Shown here one piece after another: positions 1,746-58,239 of a DNA stretch of 64,000 nucleotides. The first letter of the stretch is position 1. Every line of letters starts with the position of its first letter. Source of the DNA: a virus (taxonomy: Duplodnaviria > Caudoviricetes); IMG/VR virus record IMGVR_UViG_3300048693_000367, positions 58,199 to 122,198 of that record, one strand, 5' to 3'. Both the position numbers and the translations under genes were made by a program. The notes under the pieces were generated by a model. It was given only the letters and a program-made list of their open reading frames with translations, was not told the DNA's origin and searched no databases.

Positions 1746-2865
1746 TCAGGCTAAACTAAAAATAGTATGTGATGAGGTGTGTGATAACATCGAAACGTTA
1801 CTAGATTCTTTTGGTTTAGACTATAAATTCAATAATAAGATGATCACAATGCCATGTCCAATTCATGGTGGAGATAATGTATCCGCTCTTAATCTATATC
1901 CAGAAGGAGATAGTTATAGAGGAAATTGGAAATGTAGAACACATAATTGCGAAAAGATCTTTAAAGGATCCGTTATAGGTTTTATCAGAGGAGTCATATC
2001 TAATCAAAAATATAATTGGAAGGAATCTGGCGATGAAACATGCTCCTTCAAAGAAGCTGTAGAATATGCTACATCTTTTATTAACAAAGACCTAAGTAGT
2101 ATTAAAATTAGTCGAAAAGAAAGAGAAAAGAAACAGTTTACTGCTGTGGTAGGTTATCTTAATAAAGATCAAACCACATCATTATCCAAAGTCACTAGAC
2201 AACAAATCATTAAGTCTTTGAATATTCCAGCACAATATTATTTGGATCGTAAATATTCTAAAGATATTTTGATGAAATATGATGTTGGTATGTGCGAAAA
2301 AGAAGGTAAAGAAATGTACAACAGAATAGTTGTGCCTATTTATGATAATGACCATAAATATATGGTAGGTTGTACTGGTCGTAGTATTTATGAAAAATGT
2401 CCATCATGCAAAGGTTTTCACAATCCGTCTCATAGTTGTCCAAATAAGGATGATGTGTGGAAATTTTCAAAATGGAAGCATAATGCTGATTTTAAAAGCC
2501 AAAACCATCTTTACAACTTCTGGTTTGCTAAAGAACATATACTAAAATCAGGAATTGCTATTATAGTTGAAAGTCCTGGTAATGTATGGAGACTAGAAGA
2601 AAATGGTATACATAATAGCGTAGCAATGTTCGGATCTTCTCTTAGCGACAGACAGAAAATTTTATTGGATTCTTCTGGCGCTATGAGTCTTATCGTTCTA
2701 ACAGATAATGATGAGGCTGGACGTAAAGCAGCAGATCAAATTAAGCATAAGTGCCAAAATACTTATCGTATATTTATACCACCAATTAGTGCATCAGACG
2801 TTGGAGAGATGACATCAGAACAAATTAATAATGAAATTAAAACCTACTTAGAAAGTATTGTATGA
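1711..2865 (+). CDS. dnaG: DNA primase (CHC2 Zn finger + Toprim)
   Basis: CPIHGGDN...WKCRTHNC zinc finger; RIVVPI; Toprim IIVESPGNV and LTDNDEAG. Confidence 0.9.
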   Translation: MTMTMTKSHLNDQAKLKIVCDEVCDNIETLLDSFGLDYKFNNKMITMPCPIHGGDNVSALNLYPEGDSYRGNWKCRTHNCEKIFKGSVIGFIRGVISNQKYNWKESGDETCSFKEAVEYATSFINKDLSSIKISRKEREKKQFTAVVGYLNKDQTTSLSKVTRQQIIKSLNIPAQYYLDRKYSKDILMKYDVGMCEKEGKEMYNRIVVPIYDNDHKYMVGCTGRSIYEKCPSCKGFHNPSHSCPNKDDVWKFSKWKHNADFKSQNHLYNFWFAKEHILKSGIAIIVESPGNVWRLEENGIHNSVAMFGSSLSDRQKILLDSSGAMSLIVLTDNDEAGRKAADQIKHKCQNTYRIFIPPISASDVGEMTSEQINNEIKTYLESIV

Positions 2866-3503
2866 CAAAAATCTTAGCATTTTCTGGCAGAAAACAATCT
2901 GGAAAAAGTACTTCCGGGGAATTTGTAGAAAACTTTATTAAGCAAAATTTCCTACCAATTTCTTGCAAGCTATATAGTTTTGCTGATCCATTAAAGCAAG
3001 ATATCTGTATGAATCTGCTAGGATTAACATACGAGCAATGTTATGGTACAGATGACGACAAGAATACATTGACACATATACGTTGGTCTGATATGCCAAT
3101 AGAGATTCAGCAAAGACACCATAATGACACGGTGGTTAATGACTACTTAACATCAAGACAGGTTATGGAGGTCGTTGGCACAGAAATCTTTCGTAAAATG
3201 TATGGTAATATTTGGGTGGACGCTACTATATCGAAAATATACAGAGAGGAATATGATTTAGCTATCATTTTAGATAATCGCTTTCCTAATGAGGTAAATA
3301 GCGTATTAGATAATAATGGAATAGTTATCAGACTAACCAAAGACATATTCAACTCAAACTCTGAACCAGAACGAGCATTAGATCCAGATAATTATGATTG
3401 GAGTAAATTTACTCTGGTATTAGATAACTCTAATATGACGCTCGAACAAAAAAACAACGCAATTCTTACTTTTCTTCAAAATCAAGGAATACTACCATTA
3501 TAA
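2862..3503 (+). CDS. deoxynucleoside monophosphate kinase (T4 gp1-like)
   Basis: P-loop SGRKQSGKST; FADPLK; RQVMEVVGTE; DNRFPNE. Confidence 0.85.
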   Translation: MTKILAFSGRKQSGKSTSGEFVENFIKQNFLPISCKLYSFADPLKQDICMNLLGLTYEQCYGTDDDKNTLTHIRWSDMPIEIQQRHHNDTVVNDYLTSRQVMEVVGTEIFRKMYGNIWVDATISKIYREEYDLAIILDNRFPNEVNSVLDNNGIVIRLTKDIFNSNSEPERALDPDNYDWSKFTLVLDNSNMTLEQKNNAILTFLQNQGILPL

Positions 3504-3553: not shown

Positions 3554-4078
3554 TTGTTTATGCAAAAACTCTATGATATATCTAAAGAATATTTAGAAGA
3601 ACATTATATAAAACAGCAAAAAAGCGCACAACAAATTTGCAACGAACTAAATATTAAATCCAAAACCGTTATCTTAAGACTCCTTAAAAAATATAATATT
3701 CCTTCCAATAGTCAATTCGGCAAACCCAACAAAAACACTAAAAAATTTGGAGATATTCATCAGTCTTATATTTGTACTTTACGACTCAGAGCAAAAAATA
3801 AAAAAATTGACTTTAATTTAGATGGGGACTATTTATGGAAATTATTTTTAAAACAAAAACGTAAATGCGCATTGTCTGGTTTATTATTAGTATTCCCAAA
3901 AGCGTGGGGAATTAAATCAAAAACCAATATCACAGCATCTTTAGACAGAATTGACTCTAAACTTGGCTATGTTAAAGGTAATGTTCAATGGGTACACAAA
4001 ACAATTAACACAATGAAAATGAACATGAGCGATAATGAATTTATTTACTTTTGTAAAAAGGTTGCTGACTATTCATGA
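3554..4078 (+). CDS. free-standing HNH-type (homing) endonuclease with N-terminal HTH-like region
   Basis: CALSG...SLDRIDSKLGYVKGNVQWVHKTINTMK; inserted between two replication genes. Confidence 0.75.
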   Translation: MFMQKLYDISKEYLEEHYIKQQKSAQQICNELNIKSKTVILRLLKKYNIPSNSQFGKPNKNTKKFGDIHQSYICTLRLRAKNKKIDFNLDGDYLWKLFLKQKRKCALSGLLLVFPKAWGIKSKTNITASLDRIDSKLGYVKGNVQWVHKTINTMKMNMSDNEFIYFCKKVADYS

Positions 4079-5118
4079 TTATAACCTATCTAAGGAGTTC
4101 AAGTTATGGAACTCATTCTTTTTGTCCAATGCAATATTTTATTGAATATAATTTGGGCATTAGATCTCCCTCAAATAAAAAAGCCGATAAAGGCACTATT
4201 TGTCATAAGGTATTAGAAATTTTAGCTCATATTAAATTATGCACCCAGAATAATCAAAGTATTTATATTGACGATATTATTGGCGATGTTGATATAAATA
4301 AGTATAATTTGACCCATATCATCGAGCAGGTTTACAAATACTATACTGCTCAGTTTAAACACCACGAATGGACGGCCAAAGACTATAAAGACTGCCTCCT
4401 ATGGGTAAATAAAGCAATCACAGACCACAATGGTAACTTTGATCCACGCAACAGAGACATACTACAACCAGAACAACATTTTGATATCGTGATCAATAAG
4501 CCTTGGGCTTATTATAAATATAAAACTAAAACTGAAGATTTAGAAGGTCATTTAGCCATAAAAGGAACAATTGATCTTATTACTAAAGTAAATGATGATA
4601 CAATAGAAATTATAGACTGGAAAACTGGTCGTAGATTAGATTGGGCAACCGGAGAGGAAAAAACTCTCGCCAAGTTGCAAAATGATCCACAATTAAGAAT
4701 TTATCATTATGCTGTTAGCGCATTGTATCCAAATATATCACATATAATTTTTACAATCAATTTTATAAATGATGGTGGGGCTTTCAGTGTTTGTTATGAC
4801 AAATCGGATTTGCCTAAAACAGAAGATATGATTAGGCAAAAGTTCGAAACCATAAAAAGCACCAAAGTTCCTCAGTTGAATAAAAGCTGGAAGTGCAATA
4901 AGCTATGTCATTTTGGAAAAACAACTTTTGAAAATACCCATGTTCTGCCGATACTAGAATATAGAGATGGACAATTATGTAAAGTTGATACGCATATGAC
5001 CAAGTGTGAACAGCTTAAGCACGATATCGAACTAAAAGGTATGGATGTGGTGGTTGACGAATACACTTTTCCAGGTTATAGTATTGGTGCCTACAAGGCC
5101 CCAGGATCTGCTGAATAG
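4075..5118 (+). CDS. PD-(D/E)xK exonuclease (RecB/Cas4-like superfamily)
   Basis: GTICHKVLE; E..F; KGTIDLI...IIDWKTG; QLRIY; Cys pattern C...CxxxC...C. Confidence 0.85.
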   Translation: MIITYLRSSSYGTHSFCPMQYFIEYNLGIRSPSNKKADKGTICHKVLEILAHIKLCTQNNQSIYIDDIIGDVDINKYNLTHIIEQVYKYYTAQFKHHEWTAKDYKDCLLWVNKAITDHNGNFDPRNRDILQPEQHFDIVINKPWAYYKYKTKTEDLEGHLAIKGTIDLITKVNDDTIEIIDWKTGRRLDWATGEEKTLAKLQNDPQLRIYHYAVSALYPNISHIIFTINFINDGGAFSVCYDKSDLPKTEDMIRQKFETIKSTKVPQLNKSWKCNKLCHFGKTTFENTHVLPILEYRDGQLCKVDTHMTKCEQLKHDIELKGMDVVVDEYTFPGYSIGAYKAPGSAE

Positions 5119-5266
5119 AATTGATAGTTCAAAAGGATACATCCAAAGCAATGTTTGGTGGGTCAAAAAAGATATCAATAAAATGAAACTAGACTTTCCT
5201 TTGCATACGTTTATTGCATTATGTGAAAAGGTCGTAGCCAACAAGGAGAAAATTGGATGGACATGA
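5115..5266 (+). pseudogene. C-terminal remnant of an HNH endonuclease paralogous to 3554..4078
   Basis: RIDSSKGYIQSNVWWVKKDINKMK...FIALCEKV aligns with RIDSKLGYVKGNVQWVHKTINTMK...FIYFCKKV; no N-terminal part or credible start. Confidence 0.75.
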
Positions 5267-6694
5267 GCAATTATATACCGCTTCATGTCCATTCCTAAGT
5301 GGGCCATGTTCTCACTTCTGGATGGACTCTCAAAACCTGAGCAAATTGCAGAGCGTTGTAAAGAGATAGGTGCAAAAGCATGTGCGCTAACTGATCACGG
5401 TAATATTGCCGGAGCAGTTAAGTTTTATTCGGCCATGAAAAGCGCCGGTGTGAAACCTATTCTTGGTTGCGAACTATATATATGTGATCAAGACCCAACC
5501 ATAAAAGAAAAAGATAACAAAAATCTTAGTCATTTTATAGTGTTGGCCAAAAACTATAATGGATGGAAAGATCTAATTAAGATTGTTTCTGAATCTAATA
5601 AGCCAGAACACTATTATCATAAGCCAAGATTAGATCTTAAAACTATACAATCTTTGAATCGTGGTAATCTTATTGCTGTTACCGGGCATTTAGGATCAAC
5701 ATTAGCAGATATTATTCTGGATAATTATAGTCTCAAATCTGATTGGTTGGAATTGGGCAAACAGCATATCTCAACATTAAAGGATATTTTTGGAGATTTT
5801 GTATTTCTAGAAGCCCAACTAATGGACAAAGACAATCTGCTTGTACAAAATATACTAACAGACGCTATTAGACAGTTGGGGAAAATTACAAACACTAAGG
5901 TTATTTGCACTCCTGATGCTCACTATTGTCGTAGAGAGGACGCTATTGATCAAAGAATTCTTCTGTGTAATAATCTTAAAATAACATTTCCTGATATTAG
6001 TCGTAAGATTAGTAATGATGAAGACATTCCAATGGGATGTTTTTTCACTTCGGATAATTATCATATTCCATCACAAGAAGAGATGAAAGAGTGGCATACA
6101 AAAGAAGAAATAGAAAATACTAATTTTGTATCAGACTTAATAGAAGAATATGATATACTTAGCAAACCAAAGCTACCACCCTTTGATTGTCCTAATAATT
6201 TATCTCAAGATGAATATCTCAGAGAATTATGTAGAAAGGGCTGGAAAGATAAGATAGCTAATGTTATACCACAAGATCAGCAACAGCAATATATAGATCG
6301 TATCAAAAACGAACTAGATGTTTTACAGGGTGCTGGGTTGAGTAGTTATTTTCTAATAGTACAAGACATTGTTAATTATGTTAGAAAAAACGTATGGCTT
6401 CCGGGACCAGGTAGAGGATGTTTTTTACCAGACTCTAGAGTTTTAACTCCAAGTGGTGAACTCATACCTATTGTTAATATGAATATTGGTGATGAAGTTA
6501 TCGATGCTTATGGTAATAAGCAAAAAATAACTAATACTTTTCAATACGAGGTCGAAGAAGAAATACTACAATTAGAGCTAGAGAACGGCAAGATTATAAG
6601 ATGCACCAAAGACCATAAATTCTTGACCAAGAATAGAGGGTGGGTAGAAGCGCAATATCTCACAGAACTAGATGATTTGGTTGAAGTTAAATAA
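5263..6694 (+). CDS. dnaE: DNA polymerase III alpha-type, fragment 1 (PHP domain to GPGRG) + N-terminal split intein; 10-nt interruption at 5296-5305
   Basis: MSNYIPLHVHS* (5263-5298) then MFSLLDG in +1 frame (5306); TDHG, GCE, DAHY, YFLIV, GPGRG; then intein start CFLPDSRV. Confidence 0.9.
6419..6691 (+). mobile_element. split intein N-half (91 aa)
   Basis: Block A CFLPDSRVLT directly after GPGRG; block B IRCTKDHKFLT; GWVEAQYL..DDLV then stop. Confidence 0.92.
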
Positions 6695-6744
6695 AAAGAA
6701 CCCCGACCAAGACTTTTGGTGTAATCTAGACCAGGAGAATAAAG

Positions 6745-7539
6745 ATGAAATACATTACACAACAATATCTAATCGACAATAATTACTCGACCAAAGGTAT
6801 ATCAAATATCTCTTTTAAGGGAAAATGTCAAAAATGTAAAAACAATTTTAAATATTCTAGTTTGAAAAAATTTCTACAAAATAGAAAAGATTTATCTAAA
6901 GACCAATGGATGTTATGTCAAAAATGTTTTTTGCGATTAAAAACCGCGGATAATCCTGTATGGTTAGAAAAAAATAGACAAGCACAGATTATTGCTCAAA
7001 ATAAACCAGAACAAATACAAAAAAATAAAATAGGAGTTTCCAACTCTTGGTCAAAAGAACGCAAAGCCAAAGCGTCTGAACATCTTAAAAAAAGATGGAA
7101 TAACGATGAACAGTTTAAAAATATCGCTCTACAAAATCTACAGCATAATCCGGATAATTTTATCAAAGGAATAGGTTCTGGTGGCTTAAAAGGAATATAC
7201 AGTAATATACCATATCATAGCGCGTTAGAGCTATCTTTTATATTGTGGTGCGAATCAAAAAATATATCTATTAAAAGATACGATCTTGATCCAATAGAAT
7301 ATTTAGATGAAAATAAGAACATTAGACAATACTATCCAGACTTCATAATTAACAAAACAACTATAGTAGAAATAAAAGGTAAAGGAATATGGTATCAAAA
7401 AAATTACGAAAGAAATATATGTAAAATACAAGAAGCAAAAAAACAGTCAAAAAATTATTGCGTATATTATGACATTGATGAACAGACTAAATTATTTTAT
7501 AAGAAGGCAAGGAGACTGCATCGTGAGAATCAAAAATAA
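6745..7539 (+). CDS. free-standing endonuclease (TnsA-like PD-(D/E)xK) between the intein halves
   Basis: HSALELSF...IEY...YYPDFII...IVEIKG; N-terminal CQKC/CQKC; own RBS (AGGAG). Confidence 0.75.
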   Translation: MKYITQQYLIDNNYSTKGISNISFKGKCQKCKNNFKYSSLKKFLQNRKDLSKDQWMLCQKCFLRLKTADNPVWLEKNRQAQIIAQNKPEQIQKNKIGVSNSWSKERKAKASEHLKKRWNNDEQFKNIALQNLQHNPDNFIKGIGSGGLKGIYSNIPYHSALELSFILWCESKNISIKRYDLDPIEYLDENKNIRQYYPDFIINKTTIVEIKGKGIWYQKNYERNICKIQEAKKQSKNYCVYYDIDEQTKLFYKKARRLHRENQK

Positions 7540-7627
7540 GAAAATTATTCAATACAAAGGATATGTTCATGATTTATCTGTTCAAAATTCAAAAACATAT
7601 AATATCGAAGGAATAGCGGTTCATAAT
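7523..7627 (+). mobile_element. split intein C-half
   Basis: Block F/G VHDLSVQNSKTYNIEGIAVHN followed by Ser+1 (SAAG). Confidence 0.92.
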
Positions 7628-8374
7628 AGTGCGGCAGGTTGTCTAGTATCATATCTTATTGGTATCACCAGCATAGATCCAATTAAGTATAATCTATTGT
7701 TTCAGAGGTTTTACAACGAAGGAAGAAATACTAAAGACCATATATCCATGCCAGATATTGATGTGGACGTACCGATCAACAAAAGAGAATTAATCATACA
7801 ATATATTAAGGATAAATATGGTTATGATAAAGTTTCTCAGATGGTAACGTTTAATACCATCAAAGGACGAGGAGCACTAAAAGACGTATTAAGAGTATAT
7901 GGTAATATTAGTTTTGAAGAAATGAATACTATCACTAAAAATATACCGGACGAGGCCAAAATTGCGGACGAATTGCAAGAAATGAAAGAAGAAACTGGAG
8001 AAGCATCTATCATAAGATGGGCATTAGAAAATAATGCTGAAAAACTCAAGGATTGGTGTTATATTGACGATAATGGAGAATTGCAGGGGCCTTTGGCAAA
8101 AAGGTTCGAGCAGGCTATTAGATTAGAGGGTACAAAATCCAATCAGTCAAAACACGCAGCCGGTATTGCTATCAGTTCAGAGCCACTAGGAGATTTATGT
8201 CCCATGGTTTACGATAGTAAAAACGAACAACTTATTGCTGGCATGGAGATGCAAGACTTAGAAAATATTGGCATTATCAAGTTCGATATTCTCGGAGTTG
8301 CAATGTTGGATAAAGTTATGACTATTACAGACCTATTAAAACAAGGAGTAAAAAATGAGCCAAGTACAATTTAA
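7523..8374 (+). CDS. dnaE: split intein C-half (35 aa) + DnaE fragment 2 (palm catalytic core)
   Basis: GTG 7523 after AAGGAG; VHDLSV...YNIEGIAVHN/S; SAAGCLVSYLIGIT; MPDIDVD; SKHAAG; KFDILG. Confidence 0.92.
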   Translation: MRIKNKKIIQYKGYVHDLSVQNSKTYNIEGIAVHNSAAGCLVSYLIGITSIDPIKYNLLFQRFYNEGRNTKDHISMPDIDVDVPINKRELIIQYIKDKYGYDKVSQMVTFNTIKGRGALKDVLRVYGNISFEEMNTITKNIPDEAKIADELQEMKEETGEASIIRWALENNAEKLKDWCYIDDNGELQGPLAKRFEQAIRLEGTKSNQSKHAAGIAISSEPLGDLCPMVYDSKNEQLIAGMEMQDLENIGIIKFDILGVAMLDKVMTITDLLKQGVKNEPSTI

Positions 8375-8546
8375 AGATGTTGGTGAAAATACAACGTTTA
8401 AATCAAATGGTATAGAATACAAAAAGATACCTATGGTTAAAATTAGTTGCTGTCGATCAATAAACGCTGAACAGGTCGACAATCCTGCTCAAAGAACATT
8501 CGTTCCACCAAACACAGAGGTTGAAGTTAATGATCAACAACAATAA
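8355..8546 (+). CDS. hypothetical protein
   Basis: 63-aa ORF with AAGGAG RBS, overlapping neighbours. Confidence 0.6.
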   Translation: MSQVQFKDVGENTTFKSNGIEYKKIPMVKISCCRSINAEQVDNPAQRTFVPPNTEVEVNDQQQ

Positions 8547-9228
8547 GATTTGTGTTTTTGATTTTGAGACCGATGGTTCTGATCCGCGATCATGTAGTCC
8601 GGTACAAATTGCTGCTTTAATTATTGACCCTATTAATCTAGAGATCGTAGAAGGATCCGAACTTAATGTGTTTTTTAAACCAGAAGTTTTGGAAAACAAT
8701 GATAATTATACATATGAAACAGATATCCTAGACTTTCATTCCAAAGTAAAAGGATGTTCTAAAGACGATGTTTTAAAGTCCTGGTATAATTATCCAAAAC
8801 AAGATCATTCTTGGAAAATGTTTGTTAATTATTTAGATAAATATCATTCTAGAAGTTCTAAAAAGAGTCAGTTTAGTGCTCCTATTGCTGCTGGCTATAA
8901 TATCAACAGATTCGATCTGCATATCGTTGACAGACTAAGCAATAAATATGGTAATCTGAATAAAGAACAAAGAACAAACTTATTCTATCCTAGAGATGTT
9001 ATAGATGCTATGAATTTAGTATTTTATTGGTTTGAACACAACAACGAACTAAAAAGTTACACACTAGATAGTCTAAGAGAATATTTTGGCATATCAAAAG
9101 ATGGTGGTCATGATGCTCTAAAAGACGTTAAAGATACAGCCGCAATTATTATTAGATTTCTAAAATTACACAGAAGCTTGGGACAAAAAGTTAAATTTAA
9201 AAATTCATTTATAGACAATAATGACTAA
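8530..9228 (+). CDS. DEDDh 3'-5' exonuclease (DNA pol III epsilon-like)
   Basis: VFDFETDG; AGYNINRFD; HDALKD. Confidence 0.88.
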   Translation: MINNNKICVFDFETDGSDPRSCSPVQIAALIIDPINLEIVEGSELNVFFKPEVLENNDNYTYETDILDFHSKVKGCSKDDVLKSWYNYPKQDHSWKMFVNYLDKYHSRSSKKSQFSAPIAAGYNINRFDLHIVDRLSNKYGNLNKEQRTNLFYPRDVIDAMNLVFYWFEHNNELKSYTLDSLREYFGISKDGGHDALKDVKDTAAIIIRFLKLHRSLGQKVKFKNSFIDNND

Positions 9229-58161: not shown

Positions 58162-58239
58162 TAAACCCTTGCTACGTAAGGAGTTACAGCGAATTTTCGC
58201 CCGCAAATTTGACGTAAGTGCTTGTGGCATAACGACTTA
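58162..58239. repeat. 78-bp bipartite element, copy 4
   Basis: TAAacccTTgctacgtAAggagTTA-N28-TAAgtgcTTgtggcatAAcgacTTA. Confidence 0.9.

Follow-up and report, generated by a model that had tools for sequence, protein, structure and literature searches.

To our knowledge, gene 60 of phage T4 and its homologues are essentially the only known case of efficient programmed bypassing among bacteria and their phages. Bonocora and colleagues reportedly showed in 2011 (PNAS 108:16351) that the gene 60 bypass is carried by the MobA HNH homing-endonuclease element, and low-level stop-hops in Escherichia coli, in which 9 nucleotides (nt) specify one amino acid, are said to have been described by Weiss et al. 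in 1987 and O'Connor et al. in 1989. In the mobA/gene 60 layout (bioRxiv 10.1101/2022.08.31.505936), an HNH gene is combined with an N-terminal extension that overlaps the end of the HNH gene, with a homologous region that serves as a replacement, and with a bypass cassette. An A-site stem-loop that begins at the stop codon of gene 60 is proposed to hinder release factors, and derivatives of gene 60 land at GGG 9-11 nt after take-off (bioRxiv 10.1101/2024.12.09.627546). According to a review, short natural equivalents of gene 60 have been expected for a long time, and not one natural in-frame stop-hop is known (PMC5009743). The same review summarises the byps of Magnusiomyces capitatus mitochondria (Lang et al. 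2014), in some of which take-off and landing codons match at 2/3 positions. The locus analysed here, the 5' end of dnaE in an uncultured lake virus, could be a further natural case. It lies in a window of 64,000 nt (positions 58,199 to 122,198 of IMG/VR record IMGVR_UViG_3300048693_000367, the terminal 64 kb of that 122-kb record), where a short dnaE leader is separated from the main DnaE reading frame by a 10-nt gap that opens with a stop codon. We put at roughly 60% the probability that this gap is crossed by a short programmed ribosomal hop and that it lies within a mobile homing-endonuclease cassette. We infer the hop itself, the role of an RNA hairpin around the gap and a function in immunity.

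In the window the leader and its stop occupy 5257-5298 (ATG GAC ATG AGC AAT TAT ATA CCG CTT CAT GTC CAT TCC TAA) and are followed by GTGGGCC; from 5306 the sequence continues ATG TTC TCA CTT CTG GAT GGA, in the +1 frame relative to the leader. The main DnaE open reading frame (ORF), listed from ATG 5285, is one base out of phase with the leader and has Pfam matches to PHP (2.1e-32, from profile position 8), DNA_pol3_alpha and Intein_splicing. With a PHP match that begins only at profile position 8, the main ORF lacks the first strand and its HxH motif. Deletion of 5296-5305 gives HVHS-M-FSLLDG, with the same spacing as in all 24 distinct gap-free relatives, in each of which exactly one residue lies between HxHS and [Y/F]S. 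As in known bypassed genes, there are two ORF parts and a non-coding gap, and the parts are colinear with uninterrupted homologues once the gap is removed. A sequence-only reading of the window had already described a leader from ATG 5263, a TAA at 5296 and a 10-nt removal that restores HVHS-MFSLLDG. These coordinates and the sequence were correct, and the TDHG, GCE and DAHY motifs of the PHP domain that it listed are present in the main ORF. Its choice of start codon stands in part: ATG 5263 is there, but the start conserved in all variants is ATG 5257, two codons upstream and always followed by G[AG]C. This conservation, and its position 7 nt after AAGGAGA, make ATG 5257 the likelier start, and AAGGAGA is probably the functional ribosome-binding site of the leader.

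The checks suggested by the same reading included one against raw reads and one against the 5' ends of homologous dnaE genes. A 2-kb stretch of this DNA was present in 20 lake or freshwater DNA runs from 11 studies, with no RNA run among them. Contigs from four runs of four studies had 0 differences across 5000-5600, at depths of 10-43, and carried the identical insert; the source sample may be among these four runs, but it cannot account for all of them. The identical genotype was recovered from lake runs filed in 2023 and 2025. An assembly error is ruled out by the identical contigs from four separate studies, and the insert is not an artefact.

Comparison with homologues gave 24 gap-free relatives that lack the insert and about 70 distinct related viral contigs with a stop-led gap at the same codon boundary. 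A protein-guided scan yielded 47 related loci, mostly with an uninterrupted HxHSx[YF]SLLDG, and several with a stop after HVHS and a short insert; there were four further pattern scans, two without fixed GTC-CAT-TCY codons and one without a fixed stop. Gap lengths were 7, 8, 9, 10 and 11 nt, so that all three frame relations are represented, and all gaps open with UAA, UAG or UGA directly after the Ser codon. Their context is GUC-CAU-UCN throughout, with UCY in all but one (UCA in L185, a 7-nt UGA variant). No dnaE gaps of 12 nt or more and no stop-less gaps were found in the pattern scans, including the one without a fixed stop. The last triplet of the gap, on which a hopping ribosome would land, is a Ser codon in 26 of the 44 unique variants and has C as its second base in 43 of them; in the window, take-off UCC and landing GCC match at 2/3 positions, as the earlier reading had claimed. 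UGA shuts the +1 frame just before this triplet in the L056 and L066 types, all 11-nt variants have a main frame without a stop across the gap, and the main frame of 21 of the 46 unique variants has no ATG, GTG or TTG between the last upstream stop and the first conserved codon. With all frame relations represented, the +1 frame closed in some variants and the main frame start-less in others, the family cannot be accounted for by a single-base frameshift, read-through or independent initiation. It can be accounted for by a frame-independent jump that starts on the Ser codon and ends on the last gap triplet. An alternative genetic code was ruled out, since the only in-frame gaps are those of 9 nt.

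Selection at the protein level is apparent on both sides of the gap. The leader consensus of 44 unique sequences is M-[D/G]-[M/V]-x-x-x-Y-[V/I/T/S]-P-L-H-V-H-S, in which the Tyr, Pro, Leu and first His are invariant (44/44) despite the use of TAT/TAC, CCT/CCC/CCG, five Leu codons and CAT/CAC. Invariant residues encoded by so many synonymous codons argue that the leader is translated and important. After the gap, the codons for residue x (His, Met or Glu), Tyr/Phe, Ser and Leu change synonymously or to residues found in gap-free relatives. The 3' strand of the stem described below is variable solely at third-codon positions, which argues that these codons are translated in the main frame. A longer hop, to the Ser of Y/F-S-LLDG or across the whole hairpin, was rejected because the codons for x, Tyr/Phe, Ser and Leu vary synonymously and hence are translated; take-off from the His CAU to the CAU at 5305-5307 was rejected since it gives the wrong landing frame. 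Landing on the last gap triplet would be expected to yield the canonical product, given the invariant one-residue spacing of the motif. As to a possible nascent-peptide signal in this leader of just 13-14 residues, conservation of YxPLHVHS is already accounted for by PHP function.

The gap is enclosed by a predicted bipartite RNA hairpin (Table 1), for which the minimum free energy in the window is -18.7 kcal/mol (z = -4.46; 0/200 shuffles as good). All 32 distinct core sequences form the inner-stem fold. For the family we used a covariance-model alignment, because MAFFT set the gaps out of structural register; pairing is found there in 99.5% of the 571 cells (38 distinct sequences), as against 30-51% with slid partners, and, while the alignment is fitted to the model, unconstrained folding returned the same structure. 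Double changes occur in three pairs (21 cells), with a covariation score reached by 0/500 shuffles. In the inner stem A-U and G-C alternate opposite TAT/TTT versus TAC/TTC, and U-A, A-U, C-G, G-U and U-G are all seen opposite TCA, TCT and TCG, the compensatory changes being located at third-codon positions. The last base of the stop also covaries with the first Leu base (UAG...CUA versus UAA...UUA). The outer stem has 8/8 pairs in 46/46 unique gap bearers, compared with 2-8 (median 5) in the 24 gap-free relatives, and it has just two variants, GUU and GGAU, both of them wobble-compatible. The many G-U pairs make the hairpin specific to the sense RNA strand. A search of Rfam gave no match to the element at E <= 1. 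A different hairpin, pairing UCCAUU with AGUGGG, had been put forward earlier. It does form in isolation in the window (-6.8 kcal/mol), but it is confined to GUGGG variants, is weak or absent in most relatives and has no conserved register. The gap itself is the reverse complement of the Tyr/Phe (third base)-Ser-Leu codons that follow it. Since it repeats the neighbouring codons in inverted form, it could have started out as the scar of a snap-back (inverted-duplication) repair after nuclease cutting in the dnaE PHP motif, making the allele nuclease-resistant.

The provenance of the insert is accounted for by a remnant of an HNH homing-endonuclease gene, which the sequence-only reading had not mentioned in connection with the gap. 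This remnant is 90% identical (tblastn) to residues 188-238 of the intact 238-residue HNH protein of relative L018 (gene at 2244-2960), and its translation includes ...RIDSSKGY...WWVKKDINKMK...KEKIGWT*. Intact HNH genes of about 235-253 codons lie between the PD-(D/E)XK gene and dnaE in L018, L061/L078, L072, L105, L112, L180 and L182. They encode an N-terminal helix-turn-helix, match the PHROG HNH/endonuclease families phrog_3322 and phrog_374, and have a stop that overlaps the dnaE leader. Truncated copies are found in the window, L071/L080, L056 and L185; most other gap bearers have a spacer too short for tblastn, with just the last HNH codons left. Every detectable HNH copy or remnant sits in a gap-bearing locus, and none of the gap-free loci has this HNH at the junction. 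On the DnaE tree the gap requires 5-7 gains or losses, and gap bearers are interleaved with gap-free sisters. Over the first 30 nt after the gap, the window shares 87-93% identity with cassette bearers (80% with L052) and 63% with L003, the closest gap-free relative (89% identical over 329 DnaE residues compared). From about 90 nt after the gap its identity to L003 is 97-100% across most of the following 200 nt, and it is less cassette-like. On this evidence the window is a mosaic, and the patchy, mosaic distribution indicates that a cassette is mobile. The cassette accordingly comprises the HNH gene, a replacement dnaE leader overlapping its end, the stop-led gap and about 30-90 nt of co-converted dnaE.

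Two relatives (L183, 395-425; L186, 5243-5273) have a cassette-like leader (ATGGGCG...YVPLHVHS, GTCCATTC) but lack a gap and any detectable HNH; precise loss of the gap may have made them revertants, or they may represent the state before insertion. L003 carries a different, classical HNH gene (2393-2971; 192 residues) at the same PD-(D/E)XK/dnaE junction, with a gap-free dnaE, which makes this junction an apparent hotspot used by several homing endonucleases.

The likeness of the dnaE cassette to T4 mobA/gene 60 extends to its overall plan. In both, an HNH gene lies directly upstream, with its 3' end overlapped out of frame by the leader, and the element brings its own copy of the conserved residues that it displaces. 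Both are patchy among relatives, with gap lengths that differ between clades. In both, a stem-loop begins at the stop right after the take-off codon, an extended stem contains the take-off codon itself, and the landing triplet is usually synonymous with the take-off codon, although in the window it matches at just 2/3 positions. There are also several differences. The gap is 7-11 nt in the dnaE element and 50 nt in gene 60 (20 in the Aeromonas clade), and take-off is from Ser UCY as opposed to Gly GGA. The 46-residue nascent-peptide signal of gene 60 cannot exist in a leader of 13-14 residues. Unlike in gene 60, the landing triplet is enclosed by the hairpin, the 3' arms are coding, and landing would be near-cognate in 18 of 44 variants. 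The dnaE cassette lies at the 5' end of the gene and, unlike the MobA cassette, does not split it in two. The HNH protein of L018 has no similarity to T4 gp60.1, the only MobA-region ORF compared (BLASTP E = 0.65), which makes an origin independent of MobA likelier. The dnaE element would then work like the MobA/gene 60 cassette without being a member of it, and an independent miniature counterpart is the likelier description. Hops of such length have precedents in gene 60 derivatives, which land 9-11 nt after take-off.

Other recoding events resemble the dnaE element in part. In the E. coli stop-hops a peptidyl-tRNA likewise makes a short hop over a stop to a similar codon 6-11 nt downstream, independently of frame. 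However, these are synthetic or unprogrammed and inefficient, whereas the dnaE element is natural and conserved, has its own hairpin and lies in an essential gene. The byps are also short mobile inserts tolerated through translational bypass, but they involve mitochondrial ribosomes, inserts of 27-55 nt in many genes and an unused sense codon in the A site, and have no linked endonuclease gene. Frameshifting of the prfB type shares with the window a stop in the A site and a frame change of one base. It differs in that the dnaE site lacks both a slippery P-site codon and an upstream Shine-Dalgarno stimulator at the required spacing, and in that dnaE relatives need shifts of 0 or +2 or have a closed +1 frame. 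In the literature searched, no paper ties bypassing to dnaE or to the PHP motif.

We suggest that ribosomes would start at AUG 5257 and translate MDMSNYIPLHVHS, until UAA enters the A site while peptidyl-tRNA-Ser occupies UCC 5293-5295. The inner stem, which starts with its 5' arm from the second stop-codon base, would re-form at the A site and could hinder release factors. The tRNA would then leave UCC, the mRNA would slip by 10 nt, and the tRNA would re-pair at 5303-5305, a triplet that is GCC in the window (2/3 pairs) and a Ser codon in most relatives. Decoding would resume at AUG 5306 to give one polypeptide with a canonical PLHVHS-MFSLLDG PHP motif and the junction ...PLHVHSMFSLLDGLSK. 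The gap probably shields the cassette-bearing allele from its own nuclease, as has been proposed for T4 mobA/gene 60. Several considerations weigh against such a hop. The landing triplet of the window is not a Ser codon, and the near-cognate variants would land on ACU, GCU, GCC or UUU. With an AUG directly after the gap, an N-terminally truncated DnaE made by termination and re-initiation is possible. A leader of this length is too short for a nascent-peptide signal of the gene 60 type. The landing triplet is at the end of the hairpin loop and the 3' arm is coding, an unprecedented arrangement for which gene 60 gives no model. Finally, the fourth base after the stop is mostly G, which is not obviously a weak context for termination.

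If ribosomes simply terminated at UAA 5296 and restarted at AUG 5306, 7 nt further on, the product would be a DnaE without its first strand and HxH. The PHP metal site might be dispensable in a phage with a separate DEDDh exonuclease, and a DnaQ-like exonuclease gene is indeed present at 8521-9228. The window and the other variants with Met after the gap do have a suitable AUG, and most of the latter have a non-Ser landing triplet. We nevertheless consider re-initiation unlikely. After the gap, sister variants of this cassette read CAY or GAA, and the restart that had been offered as the trivial alternative, while possible for the window, is impossible in the 21 of 46 variants without a main-frame start codon. 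The Met-type leaders keep PLHVHS on diverging codons (CCG CTT CAT, CCT CTG CAT, CCG CTA CAC), which would be pointless if the peptide were discarded, and GUGGG, 3 nt 5' of the AUG, is a poor ribosome-binding site. It is a little less probable still that there is no recoding at all, and that a broken or dispensable dnaE 5' end is tolerated while hairpin and gap act at the DNA or regulatory level (nuclease immunity, translational down-regulation) and polymerase is supplied otherwise. The cassette is selfish DNA, and mildly harmful homing-endonuclease insertions can be tolerated. Against this, the phage has its own full replication module (DnaB, primase, DnaE, SSB), the same genotype was recovered identical from the 2023 and 2025 lake runs in contigs of depth 10-43, codons on both sides of the gap are under purifying selection at the protein level in 44 unique variants, and the G-U pairs tie the structure to the sense RNA strand.

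Recoding that depends on gap length is very unlikely in our view. It would combine a +1 shift at UCC-UAA in the window, giving HVHS-KWA-MFSLLDG (...HVHSKWAMFSLLDG), with read-through of 9-nt gaps and -1 or +2 shifts at gaps of 8 and 11 nt. The +1 frame of the window is open across the gap, and so is the main frame of the 11-nt variants; the +1 recoding that had been suggested earlier is to this extent possible in the window, but it is not general, as L056 and L066 have a UGA in that frame and others need 0 or +2. Three different mechanisms would be needed within one closely related element, no slippery sequence is present, re-pairing from UCC to CCU is poor, and three or four extra residues would be placed in a motif that keeps one and the same spacing in the 24 gap-free relatives. 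Least credible of all is removal or correction of the gap in RNA, by cleavage and ligation or by editing, with the bipartite hairpin as recognition structure. The strongly conserved, strand-specific hairpin that encloses the gap would fit this idea. Nevertheless, we know of no bacterial or phage system that excises 7-11 nt from one arm of a hairpin, the Rfam search was negative, the cut sites are not adjacent in the fold, and the universal stop after the Ser codon would be without a role. The earlier suggestion of a collapsed group I intron fails, given the 7-11 nt gaps, the lack of an Rfam match and a U...G boundary that is not kept in relatives (UAGGGAAUCA, UAGAGAUCA). By comparison, ribosomal hopping, which the sequence-only reading had also named, has strong support from the family, in which gaps of 7-11 nt fall in all frames, a stop invariably follows the Ser codon and the leader is under selection. 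The analogy it drew with T4 gene 60 was apt, though the conserved hairpin is the 5287-5327 structure.

It is possible, though on balance we doubt it, that the dnaE element represents a second, independently evolved and smaller class of bypass, in which a hairpin of about 41 nt, and not a nascent peptide or a strict codon match, sets a hop of 7-11 nt. The gap would be a snap-back scar, and the whole would spread among freshwater phages as a nuclease-plus-immunity cassette. If the hop is real, an independent family of about 70 natural variants would provide a second natural model system for bypassing. Its gaps of 7-11 nt, three stops, cognate and near-cognate landings and one compact hairpin would amount to a ready mutational series for ribosome release and landing. 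The combination of a homing endonuclease with a bypass gap as self-immunity would then be a recurrent evolutionary solution and not an oddity of T4. As gene calls show these dnaE genes as truncated or frameshifted, mis-annotation of the replicative polymerase is likely throughout a widespread group of lake phages.

Table 1. Features at the 5' end of dnaE, in window coordinates
Feature	Position	Strand	Basis or remarks
HNH homing endonuclease remnant, last 51 codons and TGA overlapping ATG 5263	5111..5266	+	tblastn
Shine-Dalgarno sequence AAGGAGA (putative)	5243..5249	+	read directly; 7 nt 5' of ATG 5257
Leader ORF, 13 codons, MDMSNYIPLHVHS	5257..5295	+	supplies first PHP strand and HxH metal ligands
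Bipartite RNA hairpin (predicted)	5287..5327	+	outer stem, 2x2 internal loop, inner stem and loop; encloses gap
Outer stem	5287-5294 / 5320-5327	+	GUCCAUUC (Val-His-Ser codons) pairs with GGAUGGAC (Leu-Asp-Gly-Leu codons)
Take-off codon UCC (Ser; proposed)	5293..5295	+	UCC/UCU in 44/44 unique TAR-type sequences; UCA in L185
2x2 internal loop	5295-5296 / 5318-5319	+	part of bipartite hairpin
Coding gap, 10 nt, UAAGUGGGCC	5296..5305	+	stop UAA 5296-5298; proposed landing triplet GCC 5303-5305
Inner stem	5297-5303 / 5311-5317	+	AAGUGGG pairs with CUCACUU
Hairpin loop	5304-5310	+	contains two landing-triplet bases and the resume codon
Main dnaE ORF, first piece	5306..6694	+	PHP domain from MFSLLDG, palm start, split-intein N-half; proposed resume codon AUG 5306-5308
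Cassette 3' boundary zone (putative recombination breakpoint)	5336..5396	+	identity switch versus L003

The surrounding region contains a replication module of DnaB, primase, a PD-(D/E)XK nuclease, DnaE in pieces, the DEDDh exonuclease and SSB. No cultured or annotated relatives were found in a DNA search of a phage collection, and protein identity was below 36%. A search of the 122-kb genome for further copies of the dnaE element found none, the locus itself being the single significant match.

Further downstream dnaE is fractured by a split intein (6419-7627; the DnaE N piece extends to 6694 and is followed by ORFs at 6745-7539 and 7469-8374). Between the intein halves lies a free-standing gene that resembles endonuclease genes, with weak matches to PD-(D/E)XK, TnsA and endonuclease I. 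Split inteins with an endonuclease gene between the halves have been described by Dassa et al. 2009 (PMC2677866). Most relatives are without the dnaE intein, which is present in L078. A second, intein-free break in DnaE is located at 8374-9228. Here the palm piece ends after KFDILGVAMLDK, the exonuclease gene (RNase_T family) lies between it and the fingers-to-OB piece, and the latter begins at 9221; this split is kept in all relatives examined. A paralogous second HNH endonuclease gene (3554-4078) is situated between the gene at 2862-3503 and the PD-(D/E)XK gene. It is shared with L052, L061 and L078 and missing in most relatives, and in the genes next to it no gap was seen. Relatives have more insertions, in the PD-(D/E)XK gene, the DnaE palm and the DnaE C-terminal piece (L087, 1888-2834 and 4719-5821; L071/L080, DnaE C piece), and mobile elements seem to be abundant throughout the replication genes of this phage group.

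Outside the window, close to where the record begins, ARAGORN found two RNA genes, for a tRNA-Ile(TAT) and for a tmRNA with the tag GETQLALAA (G000:C1:175-250 and 881-1236). These two are the only such genes in the genome, which has no phage-encoded tRNA-Ser or suppressor tRNA. A phage-borne tmRNA is curious beside a gene that may depend on the stalling of ribosomes at a stop codon.

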